Assembly (NCBI GenBank): GCA_000092065.1
Contig: CP000591.1
Source of the DNA: Ostreococcus lucimarinus
Taxonomy: Eukaryota
DNA: 64,000 nt
Reading direction: 5' to 3' (one strand)
Shown here: piece after piece, positions 2,223-38,424 of the stretch
Layout of the letters: every line of letters starts with the position of its first letter
How positions within the stretch are numbered: the first letter of the stretch is position 1
Position numbers and translations under genes: made by a program
The notes under the pieces: generated by a model
What the model saw: only the letters and a program-made list of their open reading frames with translations
What the model was told of the DNA's origin: nothing
Databases searched by the model: none

Positions 2223-3764
2223 TCACGCCGCAACCGATTGAGCGTTCGCGTCGCCGAGCACCGCCTCGCTCGCAGTCGGCGGGGCGAGGATCTTCCTGCT
2301 CTCGTGGAAGTATTGATGCGGCGTGTGCACGCCCGCCTCGATTTCGACGCCGTCGTGAATCGCCGCAAACGTCATACCGCACGCGATTTGGTAGTGCATA
2401 TTCGTCGCCTTCTCGACAATCGCGTGCGACTTAGCACCAGAGATTTTCAACGTACCGAGCAACTCGTGCAAACGTGCGCCGTTATCCTTGACGCCAGACG
2501 TGAGCGTCTTGAACGGACAACCGTGCGCGTCCTTCACGCCCGGATCCGCTGCGATGCACTGACCGCACGCGTGCGGGGTGTAGTTGACGCGCTTCCCTTC
2601 CTTACCGTACGCGTGTCTGATACCATACGCGTAATCTTTTTCAAACTTCTCCGCGGAGCATTTCGGGTGCTTTGTGAACTCTGTCTTCCAAAACACGAGC
2701 GCCTGGTCCAGAGGCAAGCCGATGCCCTTCAAATACAGTTGCAGTTGTCGTCGACCGCCGTGCGTCAGGTGATGATCTTTCTTGAGCGCCTTGTAAAGCT
2801 GGCGCATGCACAGCGGGAAAGACTCTTGCGTGGCTTCGATGCCGGCGATCGACATCGTGCCGTCTTCGCCTTGGAAATCGTACCCGCTTCCCGATCGACG
2901 GTTGTGCACAGATTTCAAAAGCGGCGTCAAACGGTGAGCCTCCTTCTTTTCAAACTTGTTGAAGAGCGTGATGGCTTCGGCGACCATCTTGTTCAGCATC
3001 GTCTTAAACCGACCGAACACGAGTTGATCGAGGGTTTCTTTACGAATCCACGCGTTTCCGCCGATCAAGTACGCCCGTCTCGACTTGACGAGCGGGCACA
3101 CCTCTTCGAAACCGACGACGAACCAACGCGACGCCTCGCTCGCCGCTTCCTCGCACATCCTCTGGTACTCCATCGTCCCGAGCTTACCATCTTTACTGAG
3201 ACTTCGACGCATCTGCCTATACTCGTGGTCCGCCATCAAGACGTCCCGCAAATCGTCCCGTCTCTCCCGCACTTCCTTCTCGCTCGCCCGCGCGTAATCG
3301 TTAAACCCATTCGTCCGCATAAACTCCATCTTCGCGTCCAAACTCAGCTCACCGTACCGATACTTGAACAACTCCAACTCGTTCTCCCGAAACCATCGCC
3401 TGTGTTCTTCGCTTCGACAGCTCGCCAACCTCAACAAAAAATGACTCGTCGCGTCTCTCGCCGCGCCCTCCGCGTCAAACGTCCCCCCCGTCGTCCGTCG
3501 CATGTTATATTCCTCCTCCGCGCTCGCGATCGCCCGTTTCAATTCCTCATCCTTCTTCCCACCGCTTCGCGCGTCGTCGATCGCCCGCAAGACGCCGTAC
3601 CGATCCATCGCCGCGCGCTCCAGGTACTCGATGGAGCGTTCGTCATCCGGCGCGGTGTTGTACGCGTCCAACCGCGCCGCGTTTCCGCCGTACTTTCGCT
3701 CGAGCGCGGTCTTGGCGCGCGCTTCCGCTTTCTCTCGATTCGTGCGCAGCGCGCCGAAGACCAT
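2223..3764 (-). CDS. PRIM2: DNA primase large subunit (PriL/PRIM2)
   Basis: The C-terminal Fe-S domain matches human PRIM2 closely: SFPLCMRQLYKALKKDHHLTHGGRRQLQLYLKGIGL...FWKTEF...YGIRHAYGKEGKRVNYTPHACGQ...HGCPF...HYQIAC. ATG verified at 3764..3762. Confidence 0.85.
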   Translation of the reverse strand: MVFGALRTNREKAEARAKTALERKYGGNAARLDAYNTAPDDERSIEYLERAAMDRYGVLRAIDDARSGGKKDEELKRAIASAEEEYNMRRTTGGTFDAEGAARDATSHFLLRLASCRSEEHRRWFRENELELFKYRYGELSLDAKMEFMRTNGFNDYARASEKEVRERRDDLRDVLMADHEYRQMRRSLSKDGKLGTMEYQRMCEEAASEASRWFVVGFEEVCPLVKSRRAYLIGGNAWIRKETLDQLVFGRFKTMLNKMVAEAITLFNKFEKKEAHRLTPLLKSVHNRRSGSGYDFQGEDGTMSIAGIEATQESFPLCMRQLYKALKKDHHLTHGGRRQLQLYLKGIGLPLDQALVFWKTEFTKHPKCSAEKFEKDYAYGIRHAYGKEGKRVNYTPHACGQCIAADPGVKDAHGCPFKTLTSGVKDNGARLHELLGTLKISGAKSHAIVEKATNMHYQIACGMTFAAIHDGVEIEAGVHTPHQYFHESRKILAPPTASEAVLGDANAQSVAA

Positions 3765-5411: not shown

Positions 5412-8400
5412 TCAACGTTCACTGTGGTGTCTGGGCGGTCGAAACGGCAAAGGTTCGACGTTCCAAATCTTCGCCGCGTACTCCCGAATCGTGCGATCGG
5501 ATGAAAACATCCACATCGAACACGCAGCTTCGATGCACTTTGCGGTCCACTTCTCTTCGTACTGATACGCCGCATCGGCTTCTGCAATCGCCCCTAGATA
5601 CGACGGAAAATCATGCGCGGTGAGGTAGACGTCTTTCCTCGGATCGATGGCGTCCAAGAGCTGGTTGTACGCTCCGTCGTCCGGCTTGCCGAAGATGCCG
5701 GCGCGAATCATTCCCATGGCGCGGTGAAGACGAGGATCAATTTTTGGTGGGTCGTGCGCCATCTTGCGTCGAATCGCCGCGACTTGATCCGCCTTCGCGC
5801 CAAACGTGAACATGTTATGCTCGCCAATCGCTTGTTCTATCTCGATGTTCGCCCCGTCCATTGTACCCACGATCAATCCGCCGTTCATGACGAACTTCAT
5901 GTTCCCGGTGCCGCTCGCCTCCATACCCGCAGTGGAGATGTGTTGCGAGATATCACTCGCGGGAATGAGAATCTCCGCTAGAGACACGTTGAAGTTGGGA
6001 ACGAACACCACCTTGAGTAAGTCACGACACGCCGCGTCGGAGTTCACGACTTCAGACACGGCGCATACGAGCATGACAAGATTTTTCGCCATGACGTATC
6101 CGGGCGCAGCTTTGCCGGCGATGATGTGCACGCGCGGCACCATTGTTTTGCGCTGTTCGGGCGTAGCCTGCGTGATTTCGGCGTAGCGGTGCACGATTCC
6201 AAGGACATTCAACAACTGGCGCTTGTATTCGTGTATGCGTTTGATTTGCATGTCGAACAAGGCGTTGGGATCGACGCGGATATTCATCGAACGGTACAGC
6301 CATTCCGCAAGCGCTTGCTTGTTCGTTTGCTTGGCCGCGCGCCAACGCTGTCGAAATTGCGGATCTTGCGCCATCGTCTTGATCGGCTCGAGTCGCTTGA
6401 GATCGTTTACCCACCCAGGGCCGACCATGCCCGTGTAAATGCTCGCGAGCGCTGGATTCGCTTGCAACAGCCATCGTCGCGGCGTGACACCATTCGTCAC
6501 GTTGATGAACTTTTCTGGCCACATCAACAAAAAGTCGGGGAATAGCAAAGACTTCAAAAGCTTGGTGTGGATCATCGCCACCCCGTTTACGGTGTGCGAC
6601 CCGATGACGGCTAAGTTGGACATGCGTACCATCTTGGGTGATGACTCTTCGATGATACTCATCGACGACATGCGCGCGGTGTCGTTTGGCCACATCTTTT
6701 GAACCTCAAGCAAAAACCGGTGGTTGATTTCGTAAATGATTTGCATGTGTCGCGGCAAGAGCTCGGTGATCATCGGCACCGGCCACTTCTCCAGTGCCTC
6801 CGGGAGAATGGTGTGGTTGGTGTACGCGAAGACTTTTCTCGTTATTTCCCACGCCTCGTCCCAAGGTAGACGCTCGATGTCGAGGAGCAAACGCATGAGT
6901 TCGGGAATAGCAATCGCCGGGTGCGTGTCGTTGAGCTGTATCGCCACCTTGTCCGGCATATTCTTCATCGTCGTAGACCCACGACCGACGTTCTTCTTGA
7001 AACGTCTATAGATGTCTTGTAAAGTCGCGCTGACGAAGAAGTATTGTTGCTTCAATCGCAAACGCTTACCTTCTTCCGTGGCGTCGTTCGGGTACAGCAC
7101 TGACGTGATACTCTCGCAACGTTCCTTCGCCTCGACCGCGCCGTAGTAATTACCGGCGTTAAACGAGGCGAGATTGAATTCGTGCGATGGCTTGCTACTC
7201 CACAGTCGCATATTGTTGGTGTTGTACGTACCGTAGCCTGGAATCGGGGTATCGTACGCCTGCGCCATGACGACTTCGCCGCCCTCCCACGCGTACAACG
7301 TGTTCCCGTCCGGATCTTGAAACTCTCGAACGTGGCCGAATAAACGAACCGGGTACTGCACGTCTAATCGTTCAACTTCCCACGGGTTCCCATCGGTAAG
7401 CCAATAATCTGGAAACTCCACTTGTTTACCATTCACGATTCTTTGCTCAAACATTCCGTACTTGTAGCGAATGCCGTACCCCCACGCGGGATAATTTTGC
7501 GTCGCGAGCGTGTCCAAGAAACAAGACGCCAAGCGCCCCAGACCCCCGTTCCCGAGCGCTGGCTCTTTTTCCTCTGACATGATATCTTCCAAATCGTATC
7601 CAATCTGCCGCAAAGCCTCGGCGTAGGCGCCTCGTAACCCGAGATTTGAGACGGCATTGCCGAGCGAGCGGCCGATTAAAAATTCGAGCGACAGATAGTA
7701 CACTTTCTTCGCCCCTTTCTTGGCCGAATACTGCTGCGTGTCCGTCCATCGCTCGATCAATCGATCTCGCACCGAGTGCGCGGTGGCTTGATAAAACGAG
7801 CTCGTATCGAGCTTGTACCTCCTTCGCGCGAGCGTATACTCCACGTGCCGCACCAACGATCGCTGCAAACTCGCCACGTCGTTTGGCAAGTACGTGCTCG
7901 ATAGCTTCCACAACAACTCCTTGTGCGCCAAGTGATCGACGCCCATCTCTGCATCGTCGACGTACTGACGCGGGCGATCGAGGATCGTCGTCGCGCTCTC
8001 CAAGAACGATGACTCGGTCACGTCCGCGCGATCGCTTTCCATATCCACGCTAAACGAATCCAGCTGCCCGAGCGAGTCTTTCCTCCGATGCTGCAACAAA
8101 GACGCTCCGCTCGACCGTGGACTGTGCAAGCTCACCGGCGGTCGCCCTCGATGATGATTCTGATGTTGTTGGTACTGATATCCACCCCTGTCGACGCCCA
8201 CGATCACGGGCATACCCGTCTCGTCGTCCCCTCGCGCGTACGATCCCGCGCCGCTCCTCGCCATCCGACCGCCGTACGCGCTCGACGTCGACGAGTCGTT
8301 CTCCTGCGCCAGATTCGCCCGCAAGCTCTGTTCGAGCCACGCGTCCACGCGCGTGTTTTGCCCGCTCGCCACGGACGAGCCCGGCTTCCGCCTCGCGCTC

Positions 8401-35910: not shown

Positions 35911-36984
35911 TTAATGCGTCGACGTCGTCAAGTATGCGAACAACAGCATGGGCGCGCCGAAGAGGCCGACCATGGTGAGCATCGCCTGCGTGTTCAGCGC
36001 CTTGACTTCTTCTTCGTCGATTTCGCCCGCAAACTTTTCGTTCGCCATCTTGATCAGGTACTCGTCGTACGCGTCTAGTTTTGCGGCGTCCATGTAATCG
36101 AATAAGTCCGATTTCATCTTCTTGGAAGCCGTCGTCATCCCCCAAATCATTCGATCCGCTTGCTTGGACACGTTTCCGTACTGGTTTCCGATGCACCGAC
36201 GATACTGCTTCAACGCCTCATCTCGGCGCTGCAAGTTGTCCAGACAGATGGCGTAGTTGAAGATTATCCTCCCGCCCATCTCCGTCTTTTGCCCGATGCG
36301 ATCGAGCGCCCACGGCTCGAGCAAATCGAGCGCGTCTTGCATGTATCCTCGCTTCATCGCCTCGCCCGAACGCTCCAAAACCTCCCGCACCTCCGCGTAC
36401 TCCGCGTTCGTCAGCGTCATCCCCTGATCCTCGCGATATTTCGCCAATTTCTTCGCCACTCTCGCCCTTCGCGCCGCGATCGCCTCCTCGTCCTCCAACT
36501 CCTCCCGTTTAACGGTTCGTCCGCCGCCGTACGTCTTCGATATATCCGGCGGTCGCTCGAACACCCCCCACGTGCTCACCGACGGTTTATACACCGCGTC
36601 CTCCACGTCGTACCCCACCGCCTTCTCGTCCGCGTCGAACGGGTCGTAATCCCGGTCCCGCGTCAAGATGCGCACCGTCACCTCCCGTTTGCGCGTCGCC
36701 CCCGTCGCGCCGTCGCTCGCCGTCTCGCTCGCGAACGTCCCGTCCGTCGTCGACGCCTCCATCGCGTCGTCCCGATCGCCTCCGTCGCCCTCCGCGCGCG
36801 CGCGCTCCATCGCCGCCGCGTACTCGCGCGCCTTTTTCACGCGATCCTCCACCGACGCGCGCAGATCGATCCTCGCGTCCGCGTCCTCGCGCGGCGCCGC
36901 GCGCGCGCGAGAGCGACGCCGTCGCGCGACGCGCGTCGGCGCCCGCGGCCGCGCGACGCGCGCGACGCGCGCCGCGCGCGCCAT
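35911..36984 (-). CDS. Hypothetical protein with a C-terminal transmembrane anchor
   Basis: ATG verified at 36984. The R-rich presequence-like N-terminus is followed by about 250 aa of normal composition (VTVRILTRDRDYDPFD...RIIFNYAICLDNLQRRDEALKQYRRCIGNQYG...) and the terminal TM segment MLTMVGLFGAPMLLFAYL. No family recognised. Confidence 0.5.
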   Translation of the reverse strand: MARAARVARVARPRAPTRVARRRRSRARAAPREDADARIDLRASVEDRVKKAREYAAAMERARAEGDGGDRDDAMEASTTDGTFASETASDGATGATRKREVTVRILTRDRDYDPFDADEKAVGYDVEDAVYKPSVSTWGVFERPPDISKTYGGGRTVKREELEDEEAIAARRARVAKKLAKYREDQGMTLTNAEYAEVREVLERSGEAMKRGYMQDALDLLEPWALDRIGQKTEMGGRIIFNYAICLDNLQRRDEALKQYRRCIGNQYGNVSKQADRMIWGMTTASKKMKSDLFDYMDAAKLDAYDEYLIKMANEKFAGEIDEEEVKALNTQAMLTMVGLFGAPMLLFAYLTTSTH

Positions 36985-37138
36985 CGCGCGCGCCGCTCTC
37001 GCGCGATCGCGCGCGCGCGACCGCGCGACGTTCGCGTCTCGAGGTTCGACGTCGAAACCGACGCGAGGTTCGATCGCGCGCGCTCGAACCTCGCGATCGC
37101 GGGTTCGATCGCGCGCGCGCCGACGTCACTGCGCGTCG

Positions 37139-37432
37139 ATGCCCGCGACCGGGACGGCGTCGTCGCGCGACGAGATCGTGCCCCCGCGACGAGGCGCGCG
37201 AAATCCATGGGTGCTCGTCGGTGCGGGCGCCACGGCGGCGGTGTTGCTCGCGGGATTCGTCGCGTTCAGGGCTGGGGACGCGCGCGCGTCGCAGCGGATG
37301 ATGCGCGCGCGAGTGCTCGCGCAGGGCGCGACGGTGGCGCTGATGGTGGCGACGTCCGCGGGAGGACTGTCGAGCGCGACGTCTTGGACGCTCGCGCGTC
37401 CCGGCGCGGGCGGGACGGCGGGCGAGGGGTGA
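37139..37432 (+). CDS. HIG1 (hypoxia-induced gene 1 / Rcf1-like) domain protein, 97 aa
   Basis: NPWVLVGAGATAAVLLAGFVAFRAGDARASQRMMRARVLAQGATVALMV matches the HIG_1_N consensus (P..Ig...ta.vl..Gl..frrGn...sq.lMr.RvaaQg.Tv.alv). ATG at 37139, TGA at 37430-37432. Confidence 0.7.
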   Translation: MPATGTASSRDEIVPPRRGARNPWVLVGAGATAAVLLAGFVAFRAGDARASQRMMRARVLAQGATVALMVATSAGGLSSATSWTLARPGAGGTAGEG

Positions 37433-37434
37433 CG

Positions 37435-38424
37435 GACGCGCGGGCGAACGCGCGCGGGTTCGCGGCGAGCGCGACGACGACGCGCGGCGACGACGACGCG
37501 TCGACGTCGCGCGACGGAGGCGCGAGCGATGGTGGGGAGCGCGGGCGCGACGGTGACGCGAGAGACGCGCGCGCGAGGCGGGACGAGGAGTCGCGCGCGG
37601 TGCTGCGCGAACGCGCGCTGCGAGCGGCGTTGAAGCGCGTGCGCGAGCTGGGATGGACGGACGCCGCCGTCGACGCGGGATTGAGGGATTTGAATTTGTC
37701 GCCCGCGATGCGCGCGATCGTTCGCGGCGACGCGGGGGCGGGCGCGAGGGACTCGGGACCGGGCGACGGGCTCGCGGGGGAGTTGGCGGGATACTTTGAG
37801 GAGTGCGCGGACGCGGCGTTTCACGCGAAGGTCGTCGCCGAGGGCGAGACGCTGCGCGCGATGAAGTCGCGCGAGCGCGTGAAGTGGCTGATGCGCGCGC
37901 GTTTGGAGATGATCGAGTCCAAGCTCGATTCGTGGCCGCGCGCGCTCGCCGCGATGGCGACGCCGCGGTACGCGATGACGACGCTTCGGCGTCGCGCCGC
38001 GCTCGCGGATTTCATCGCCGACGCCGCGGACGTCGACGCCTTGGACGTGCTTCCGGATTCGTTGGATACGTTTCGTTGGCACGCCGAACGCGCCGCGATG
38101 CTCGCGCTGTACGCCGCCACCGAGTTACGCTTGTTGACGGATTCGAGCAAGGATCGTCGCAAGACGTGGGCCTTTCTCGACGCCCGCGTCGACGACATCG
38201 CGCGATCCCGCGTCGACGTCCTCGAGCTCAAGTCGTACATCGACGTCTTCGCGCGCGACGCCGACTTGACGACGCTCGGCGCGTCGTTCGCGAGCAAAGA
38301 CGCGCTCGCCGCGGCGTTCGCGCCCGTCGCCGACGTCTTCGCTCGCGCGTCTCGCGCCGTCTTCTCGACCCCTTCGCGCGACGCGTCCGAGCGCGACCCG
38401 CCGCGCGACTCGCCCGATCGATAG
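37435..38424 (+). CDS. COQ9: Ubiquinone biosynthesis protein COQ9; the start codon is unresolved and coordinates begin immediately after the HIG1 stop in the COQ9 frame
   Basis: RAVLRERALRAALKRVRELGWT...SWPRALAAMATP...TWAFLDARVDD is colinear with human COQ9 (ILAAALEFVPAHGWT...HWPRALSILMLP...TWRFLENRVND). The only upstream in-frame ATG (37205) overlaps the HIG1 CDS in another frame. Confidence 0.7.
   Translation, partial: DARANARGFAASATTTRGDDDASTSRDGGASDGGERGRDGDARDARARRDEESRAVLRERALRAALKRVRELGWTDAAVDAGLRDLNLSPAMRAIVRGDAGAGARDSGPGDGLAGELAGYFEECADAAFHAKVVAEGETLRAMKSRERVKWLMRARLEMIESKLDSWPRALAAMATPRYAMTTLRRRAALADFIADAADVDALDVLPDSLDTFRWHAERAAMLALYAATELRLLTDSSKDRRKTWAFLDARVDDIARSRVDVLELKSYIDVFARDADLTTLGASFASKDALAAAFAPVADVFARASRAVFSTPSRDASERDPPRDSPDR

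Follow-up and report, generated by a model that had tools for sequence, protein, structure and literature searches.

A HIG1-COQ9 gene pair in Ostreococcus lucimarinus with a proposed dual-coded overlap and a candidate leaky-scanning start of COQ9

In a stretch of 64,000 nucleotides (nt) from contig CP000591.1 of Ostreococcus lucimarinus (NCBI GenBank assembly GCA_000092065.1), referred to below as the window, a HIG1/Rcf1-type gene lies immediately upstream of COQ9, and the reading frame of COQ9 passes through HIG1 in a different register. Two open reading frames (ORFs) are present in different frames, no AUG other than the one at position 37207, within HIG1, is usable for COQ9, the arrangement is conserved in related lineages, and the public COQ9 model is truncated. 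With modest confidence, and arguing from the sequence and its relatives, we favor an overlapping bicistronic unit in which COQ9 would start at 37207 by leaky scanning. An initial annotation of this DNA had pointed out that HIG1 abuts a COQ9 gene without a usable start codon of its own. This observation is real, and the locus is not an ordinary one. The features on which the argument is built are the following:

37139-37432, plus strand: HIG1/Rcf1-type gene, 97 codons followed by TGA, with a Pfam HIG_1_N match
37207-38424, plus strand: proposed full COQ9 coding sequence, a precursor of 405 amino acids (aa) followed by TAG, in the -1 frame relative to HIG1
37207-37432, plus strand: proposed dual-coded overlap of 226 nt, in which HIG1 codons 23-97 correspond to COQ9 precursor codons 1-75
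37453-37470, plus strand: RGFAAS motif of the COQ9 frame, kept in most lineages and also in the distant locus L017, proposed processing site (R-3 type)
37570-38211, plus strand: conserved COQ9 fold identified with phmmer, with a helix-turn-helix-like N-terminal part and, after it, the lipid-binding domain
37708-37710, plus strand: ATG of the RefSeq model XP_001420281.1, inside the conserved fold

The assignment of the first ORF as HIG1, 97 aa encoded by 37139-37432, was borne out. Residues 22-71 matched Pfam PF04588 (HIG_1_N) with E=1.2e-18 and 67.5 bits (cut-off 22.4), and the translation contains the sequence QRMMRARVLAQ, which is kept in all orthologs; the HIG1/Rcf1/HIGD family is defined by the motif (Q/I)X3(R/H)XRX3Q. 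Two hydrophobic stretches, WVLVGAGATAAVLLAGFVAF and GATVALMVATSAGGL, are visible by inspection of the translation, no predictor having been run. HIG1 orthologs were found at all related loci. The start codon of HIG1 is placed in the context gcgtcgATGccc, which has a U at -3 and is weak, and a purine occupies this position in 21 of the 24 other first-ATG contexts of the window. HIG1 is separated from the divergent upstream gene by 154 nt, and a scan of the 150 nt before the HIG1 ATG showed no ATG on the plus strand. A COQ9 5′ exon located elsewhere, one of the possibilities raised initially, is therefore unlikely, and an upstream 5′ exon was rejected on the same grounds.

The COQ9 frame is the -1 frame (equivalently +2) relative to HIG1 and terminates at TAG 38422-38424. 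It had been described as resuming 2 nt past HIG1, which is not so: the frame is open continuously from 36160 to 38424 (754 codons), running antisense through the upstream gene. This length is a by-product of the high GC content of this nuclear DNA, which is locally 65-70%. Long spurious ORFs are frequent in such GC-rich DNA and mislead prokaryote-style gene callers, which in metagenomes gave "COQ9" proteins of 331 aa and 467 aa. A match to Pfam PF08511 (COQ9) was obtained over approximately 37975-38205 (E ~1e-13, ~51 bits, cut-off 20.5). The comparison with the human COQ9 structures 4RHP, 6DEW, and 6AWL by phmmer aligned human residues 88-283 with E ~2e-15, beginning near 37570. This is about 46 codons past the HIG1 stop and agrees with the earlier estimate of about 50 codons.

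Upstream of the end of the domain, the COQ9 frame contains only two ATGs, those at 37207 and 37708. The initial annotation had correctly placed the sole upstream in-frame ATG inside the HIG1 coding sequence, and its coordinate and frame needed correction: the codon occupies 37207-37209 instead of 37205 and lies in the -1 instead of the +1 frame. The second ATG is the start of the RefSeq model XP_001420281.1 (P0056; O. lucimarinus CCE9901, 238 aa), which is 100% identical to the translation of 37708-38421. Met37708 is residue 92 of the translation from 37435, and the alignment with human COQ9 starts at residue 46-48, so that this first Met within COQ9, which had been recognized as lying within the conserved fold, is located about 45 residues inside it. 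A full TetR-like COQ9 fold with its N-terminal helices is obtained only if translation begins upstream of Met37708. Judged by this alignment, the public COQ9 model is N-terminally truncated and is without a targeting sequence and part of the fold.

That the public model is nevertheless right, and the upstream open frame nothing but untranslated GC-rich sequence, would agree with the existence of the RefSeq entry and with the commonness of long spurious open frames in this DNA. We consider this very unlikely, as it would sacrifice the residues aligned to the structured N-terminal part of human COQ9 together with any targeting sequence. Moreover, protein-level conservation of the residues upstream of Met37708, the RGFAAS motif among them, extends to all lineages, and the upstream indels are all multiples of three. 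As a separate observation on COQ9 sequences in public collections, P0004, a 258-aa relative of the window COQ9 from a Logan assembly, differs by systematic A to V and R to C changes. These match C-to-T conversion, and the source run was therefore probably bisulfite-treated O. lucimarinus DNA and not a real variant.

Twelve independent metagenome assemblies were collinear with positions 37100-37720 of the window and showed 2-6 substitutions and no indel. The frame offset between HIG1 and COQ9 is therefore real, and the 1-nt sequencing indel that had been suspected is ruled out. In addition, the exact HIG1 protein was indexed in 401 blocks of public assemblies. An assembly error or a pseudogene, for which only the missing ATG could be adduced, deserves almost no credence in view of these collinear assemblies and of two intact domains that are conserved across clades.

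Related loci, designated by L and a number, were retrieved via COQ9 and HIG1 protein matches. They comprise, together with the window, six Ostreococcus-like clades: the window with L021/L022; L007 with L015; L009 with L011; L013 with L040; L014 with L036; and L042. The comparison of orthologous loci that had been proposed earlier showed that in each related lineage sampled HIG1 immediately precedes COQ9. Where the flanking DNA suffices, the gene order is spermine synthase, ABC transporter, a gene of unknown function on the minus strand, HIG1, and COQ9. The identity of COQ9 to the window protein is 52-59% across clades and 87% for the close relative L021/L022. In all six clades the frame of COQ9 is offset by -1 from that of HIG1 and remains open throughout HIG1, and both frames are open through the overlap in each of the 10 Ostreococcus-like sequences checked.

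The distance from the HIG1 motif MRARV to the COQ9 motif RGF was 125, 140, 152, 155, 182, and 200 nt in the different lineages, always 2 mod 3, and the segment between the HIG1 stop and RGF varied from 17 to 86 nt in steps of three. Such a constant phase would not be expected for an untranslated spacer or an intron and argues that the Ostreococcus-like loci have no untranslated spacer. A different situation was found in L017 (66% GC, HIG1 with NPLVLVG), which is a more distant and probably Micromonas-like relative. Here, a spacer of 97 nt that contains stops in all frames lies between HIG1 and COQ9, and COQ9 possesses an ATG of its own. As the two genes are adjacent but separated in L017, their linkage is old and the overlap specific to the Ostreococcus-like lineages. 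Compared to all Ostreococcus-like sequences, the conserved domain of the L017 COQ9 (5503-6804) also contains an insert of about 58 residues that is rich in acidic residues and in Ala/Thr.

On an RNA starting in the intergenic region, the ATGs would be met in the order 37139 (HIG1), 37207 (COQ9), three internal Met codons of HIG1, two short out-of-frame ORFs, and 37708. The ATG at 37207, with the context aaatccATGggt, is thus the first one after the HIG1 start, 68 nt downstream, and the only one giving a complete COQ9. It is formed from a Pro codon CCA and the Trp codon TGG of HIG1, and the same CCA-TGG is present in L021/L022, L009/L011, and L013/L040. In L014/L036 and L042, a COQ9-frame ATG is located 56 nt past the HIG1 ATG and is built from an A-ending codon followed by the Cys codon TGC. 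Altogether, the first ATG past the HIG1 start is in the COQ9 frame in five of the six clades, at two different sites. The codons involved are not common ones in this genome, where CCA accounts for 13% of Pro codons and ATA for 9.5% of Ile codons. When HIG1 was resampled synonymously, a first downstream ATG in a -1 frame open to the HIG1 stop, which defined success, was obtained in 0.8-7% of trials per lineage. We put the combined probability of the recurrent ATG by chance at roughly 1e-3 and not at the naive product of the single values, as the clades are not fully independent.

The contexts of the HIG1 start codons vary along with these sites. A U at -3 is found in the window, L021, L009, L011, L013, and L040, that is in every lineage with the CCA-TGG site, and an A at -3 in L007, L015, and L042. 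A COQ9-frame ATG upstream of the HIG1 ATG is present in L042 (at -13) and in L007 (at -145). Taken as sequence features, these start contexts would fit leaky scanning. RNA structure around the two AUGs was not unusual (z=+0.7).

Two loci of one clade show peculiarities of their own upstream of HIG1. In L007 (4001-4146), the ATG 145 nt upstream of the HIG1 ATG opens a COQ9-frame ORF of 467 aa that encloses HIG1 entirely and has a strongly presequence-like N-terminus (MATLSRVRWSTSASRRR / MATLSRVRWSTSASRRRVAVAVAVR). COQ9 ORF variants of 444-469 aa recur in the L007 clade, and L015 is without this ATG. In L015 (3687-3730), two tiny ORFs lie before the HIG1 ATG. The second of them begins with the ATG at 3697 and has 10 codons, and its stop and the start of HIG1 overlap in the sequence AATGA.

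From these data we propose that HIG1 and COQ9 of O. lucimarinus form one compact expression unit, presumably co-transcribed, that would be driven from the short promoter region upstream of HIG1. Some of the scanning 40S subunits would probably bypass the HIG1 AUG because of its poor context with a U at -3. The bypassing subunits might then initiate 68 nt further on at AUG 37207, the next AUG and the predicted start of COQ9, and synthesize the 405-aa precursor in the -1 frame. The first 75 codons, rich in arginine and poor in acidic residues, and the next nine residues could serve as a mitochondrial presequence to be removed at RGF|AAS. The leaky-scanning model put forward for green-algal bicistrons fits the locus because of the 294-nt length of the first ORF, its weak start context, and the absence of an intervening ATG (PMC7896298, PMC11291117).

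The first 30 residues from ATG 37207 include eight basic and no acidic ones, and acid-free windows of 30 residues amount to only 4.9% in the -1 frame of other genes of the window. The motif RGFAAS resembles an R-3 mitochondrial processing site, and cleavage at RGF|AAS is proposed from this resemblance. The number of residues preceding the F of RGF is 84 for a start at 37207 and 75-94 in other lineages, compared to 82 in L017 with its own start codon.

Information on transcripts is provided by P0124, a COQ9 ORF of 412 aa from an MMETSP culture transcriptome ("type:complete") that belongs to the L014 clade. It starts with MPSATRFTQSLGARRRR, corresponding to the ATG 56 nt inside HIG1, and thus shows that the COQ9 RNA of this clade reaches into the HIG1 coding sequence. 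Among the possibilities considered initially, overlapping frames with dual coding is the one favored by the comparative evidence, namely the recurrent COQ9-frame ATG, the weak HIG1 context, the indels in multiples of three, the presequence length, and this transcriptome ORF.

A second transcription start between 37139 and 37207 could give a monocistronic COQ9 mRNA beginning translation at the same ATG, in which case the DNA would still be dual-coded. All evidence for ATG 37207 applies equally to this explanation. Furthermore, the matching HIG1 cluster of the L014 clade yielded no MMETSP member, and for this reason the MMETSP transcript may not reach the HIG1 ATG. We nevertheless regard two transcripts as unlikely: the spacing of the two AUGs is only 56-83 nt, and a second start would not explain why the HIG1 context is weak and why it co-varies with where the COQ9-frame ATG is located. 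Our preference for leaky scanning over a second transcription start between the two AUGs is an inference.

A further route to COQ9 would be coupling of termination and restart at the HIG1 stop. Ribosomes ending HIG1 at TGA 37430-37432 would restart at the overlapping GUG 37429 or nearby, and the COQ9 so produced would comprise about 331 aa, its leader being very short. The element concerned is:

37429-37432, plus strand: GTGA junction, a COQ9-frame GTG overlapping the HIG1 TGA; possible restart site and the start used by prokaryote-style callers

In most lineages the HIG1 stop shares nucleotides with a purine-TG codon of the COQ9 frame, the junction being GTGA in the window and four further lineages, ATGA in L011, TGATG in L040, and GTAG or GTAA in L014/L036. 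Some bicistronic loci of Auxenochlorella also have an overlapping ORF1 stop and ORF2 start (PMC11291117). Leaky scanning would be hard in L017 due to several ATGs within HIG1, which speaks for coupling as well. Nonetheless, the codon in the window is GUG and not AUG, and an AUG is present only in L011, L040, and L032. Its occurrence is sporadic and not shared by sister loci (present in L011, absent from L009; present in L040, absent from L013), and L014 and L036 have GTA. With a start at the junction GTG, the F of RGF would be preceded by no more than 10 residues, one of them an Asp, which is too few for a normal presequence and compares to 82 residues in L017. Restart after an ORF of 97 codons is inefficient unless special signals are present, and neither a conserved motif nor a motif complementary to 18S rRNA was seen upstream of the stop on inspection by eye. 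In view of these features, stop-start coupling seems improbable.

The idea that splicing or -1 ribosomal frameshifting yields a single HIG1-COQ9 fusion protein, also considered initially, found no support and appears highly improbable. The constant -1 offset would suit it, and 80 mechanical GT-AG pairs could join the frames. However, the HIG1 stop is kept in all lineages, and a classical X_XXY_YYZ slippery heptamer (Y = A/U) occurs in none of them; the window contains no heptamer of either type, and other lineages show only non-classical, unconserved G/C runs. No candidate acceptor with a pyrimidine tract was present, and an acceptor past 37452 would remove the conserved RGFAAS. Furthermore, the L017 ORFs are separated by stops in all frames, and none of the retrieved homologs has both Pfam domains. 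In the topology of Rcf1/HIGD proteins, the C-terminus of HIG1 faces the intermembrane space, and COQ9 acts on the matrix side; a fusion would therefore probably place COQ9 on the wrong side of the inner membrane.

Several observations weigh against translation of COQ9 from 37207 by leaky scanning. First, the ATG at 37207 itself has a U at -3. Second, the clades are not fully independent, since the four-fold (synonymous) sites are not saturated. Third, the L007/L015 clade has CTG in place of ATG at the Pro-Trp site, and L015 is without any COQ9-frame ATG, which leaves the start of COQ9 there unexplained. Fourth, the MMETSP ORF P0124 stems from another clade and shows only that the RNA reaches the COQ9-frame ATG, not that the HIG1 ATG is included. 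Fifth, chance would leave the -1 frame open through HIG1 in 34-54% of resamplings for each lineage, and the open frame taken singly is therefore weak evidence. Sixth, the presequence-like composition is largely forced by the amino acid sequence of HIG1. Given that sequence, its P value is 0.04-0.14, and we therefore do not attribute the composition to strong selection; it looks like the HIG1 transmembrane segment read out of frame.

Finally, four-fold sites compared between clades revealed no excess of synonymous constraint in the overlap. The excess of four-fold conservation over a shuffled null was +0.085 for HIG1, +0.09 for COQ9, and +0.107 for the neighboring ABC gene. As the HIG1 sites are no more conserved than those of COQ9 and the ABC gene, there is no signal of purifying selection on the overlapping peptide. 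Within the overlap, the window has A at 37312, where 12 of 12 environmental copies have G, and at 37384 it differs from one copy (L001). Both changes are synonymous for HIG1 and alter a COQ9-frame residue, and they are consistent with weak constraint on the overlapped peptide.

The history of the overlap can be sketched only tentatively. A possible scenario, which we put forward with some reserve, is that overprinting re-created the targeting sequence of COQ9. With the shrinkage of the Ostreococcus genome, the start of COQ9 might have moved upstream into HIG1, and the arginine-rich, acid-poor -1 reading of the HIG1 transmembrane segment might have been recruited as presequence. It would since have been kept across the Ostreococcus clades as a dual-coded leaky-scanning bicistron, with the order of the AUGs swapping along with the strength of the start context. 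If this is true, synthesis of a respiratory supercomplex factor would be coupled to coenzyme-Q biosynthesis.

Polycistronic nuclear genes of green algae are characterized by a short first ORF (median 291-357 nt), weak ORF1 contexts, and depletion of ATGs before the second ORF (Gallaher et al., 2021, PMC7896298; Duenas et al., 2024, PMC11291117). Leaky scanning has experimental support in these genes, and mitochondrial respiratory-assembly factors are over-represented (PMC7896298, PMC11291117). The HIG1-COQ9 pair shares the length of ORF1 (294 nt), the weak start context, the lack of an ATG between 37139 and 37207, the collinearity kept between species, the encoding of mitochondrial respiratory-chain factors, and the proposed leaky scanning. 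It deviates in that green-algal polycistrons have an inter-ORF spacer or at most an overlapping stop and start, whereas ORF2 of the HIG1-COQ9 pair would begin 226 nt before the end of ORF1. Seventy-five codons would thus be read in two frames; even the alternative restart codon overlaps the stop, and a spacer, of 97 nt, exists only in L017. The published work covered the Mamiellophyceae, to which the HIG1-COQ9 lineage belongs, by collinearity and not by RNA. The pair is not named in the main text of PMC7896298 and PMC11291117, in the searched supplements of PMC11291117, or in the literature searched, and on this basis we would rate it as a further case of a known green-algal bicistron type with an unusual degree of overlap.

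Overlapping ORFs in alternative frames are also known from POLG/POLGARF (10.1101/2020.03.06.980391), the triple coding of SRD5A1 (PMC13352861), and coronavirus N/ORF9b, which make use of leaky scanning or near-cognate starts. As in these examples, the second frame of the HIG1-COQ9 pair opens shortly past the first start, and the ratio of the products would be set by the start context. The clades of L007, L015, and L014 have CTG at the site, which is reminiscent of POLGARF with its CUG initiation. In contrast to the POLGARF type, where the product is usually novel, the alternative frame here would encode the N-terminus of an ancient conserved protein. MOCS2 (MOCS2A/MOCS2B) is a bicistronic mRNA with overlapping out-of-frame ORFs for two functionally related proteins. 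The HIG1-COQ9 pair resembles it in that the downstream ORF would begin inside the upstream one and differs in the genes and the pathway involved; moreover, what ORF2 contributes to the overlap would be no more than a targeting sequence, lying over a conserved transmembrane domain. Termination-reinitiation at AUGA or UAAUG stop-start overlaps occurs in caliciviruses and influenza B. The four-base GTGA/ATGA overlap at the HIG1 stop is similar to these, but in the window GUG takes the place of AUG, not all lineages have the motif, and by eye no 18S-complementary motif was seen.

These results correct the reference annotation of COQ9 in O. lucimarinus. They would add the Mamiellophyceae to the green algae with bicistronic expression, here in an extreme version in which 75 codons are dual-coded, and offer an example of how a conserved membrane-protein gene might supply a ready-made mitochondrial presequence in another frame. 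In O. tauri, a genetically tractable relative, the locus could also serve as a compact natural system in which to test leaky scanning. The link between HIG1 and COQ9 via the respiratory chain that had been supposed is plausible, and the fact that their linkage is kept between Ostreococcus and the Micromonas-like relative suggests that the organization of complexes III/IV is co-regulated with the supply of coenzyme Q.

The short region upstream of HIG1 contains a candidate regulatory element:

37121-37128, plus strand: CRE-like motif CGACGTCA, 18 nt ahead of the HIG1 ATG

8-mers resembling TGACGTCA were present 18-31 nt before the HIG1 ATG in 8 of 11 loci scanned, at a greater distance in L015 and L042, and not at all in L017. 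Judged by sequence and position, CGACGTCA is a probable promoter element, which would imply a very short 5′ leader. The exact HIG1 protein was encountered in metagenome sources only and had no RefSeq or UniProt accession in the collection searched, whereas the adjacent COQ9 has XP_001420281.1; the HIG1 gene is probably missing from the reference annotation. The region shared with the divergent gene contains three copies of a GGTTCGATCGCGCGCGC-like unit (37035-37127) and a 20-nt palindrome, CGCGAGGTTCGATCGCGCGC (37062-37095), which are possibly elements of a bidirectional promoter. The divergent gene itself (35911-36984, minus strand) encodes a protein of 357 aa without a Pfam match and is found in the same position at every related locus with flanking DNA.

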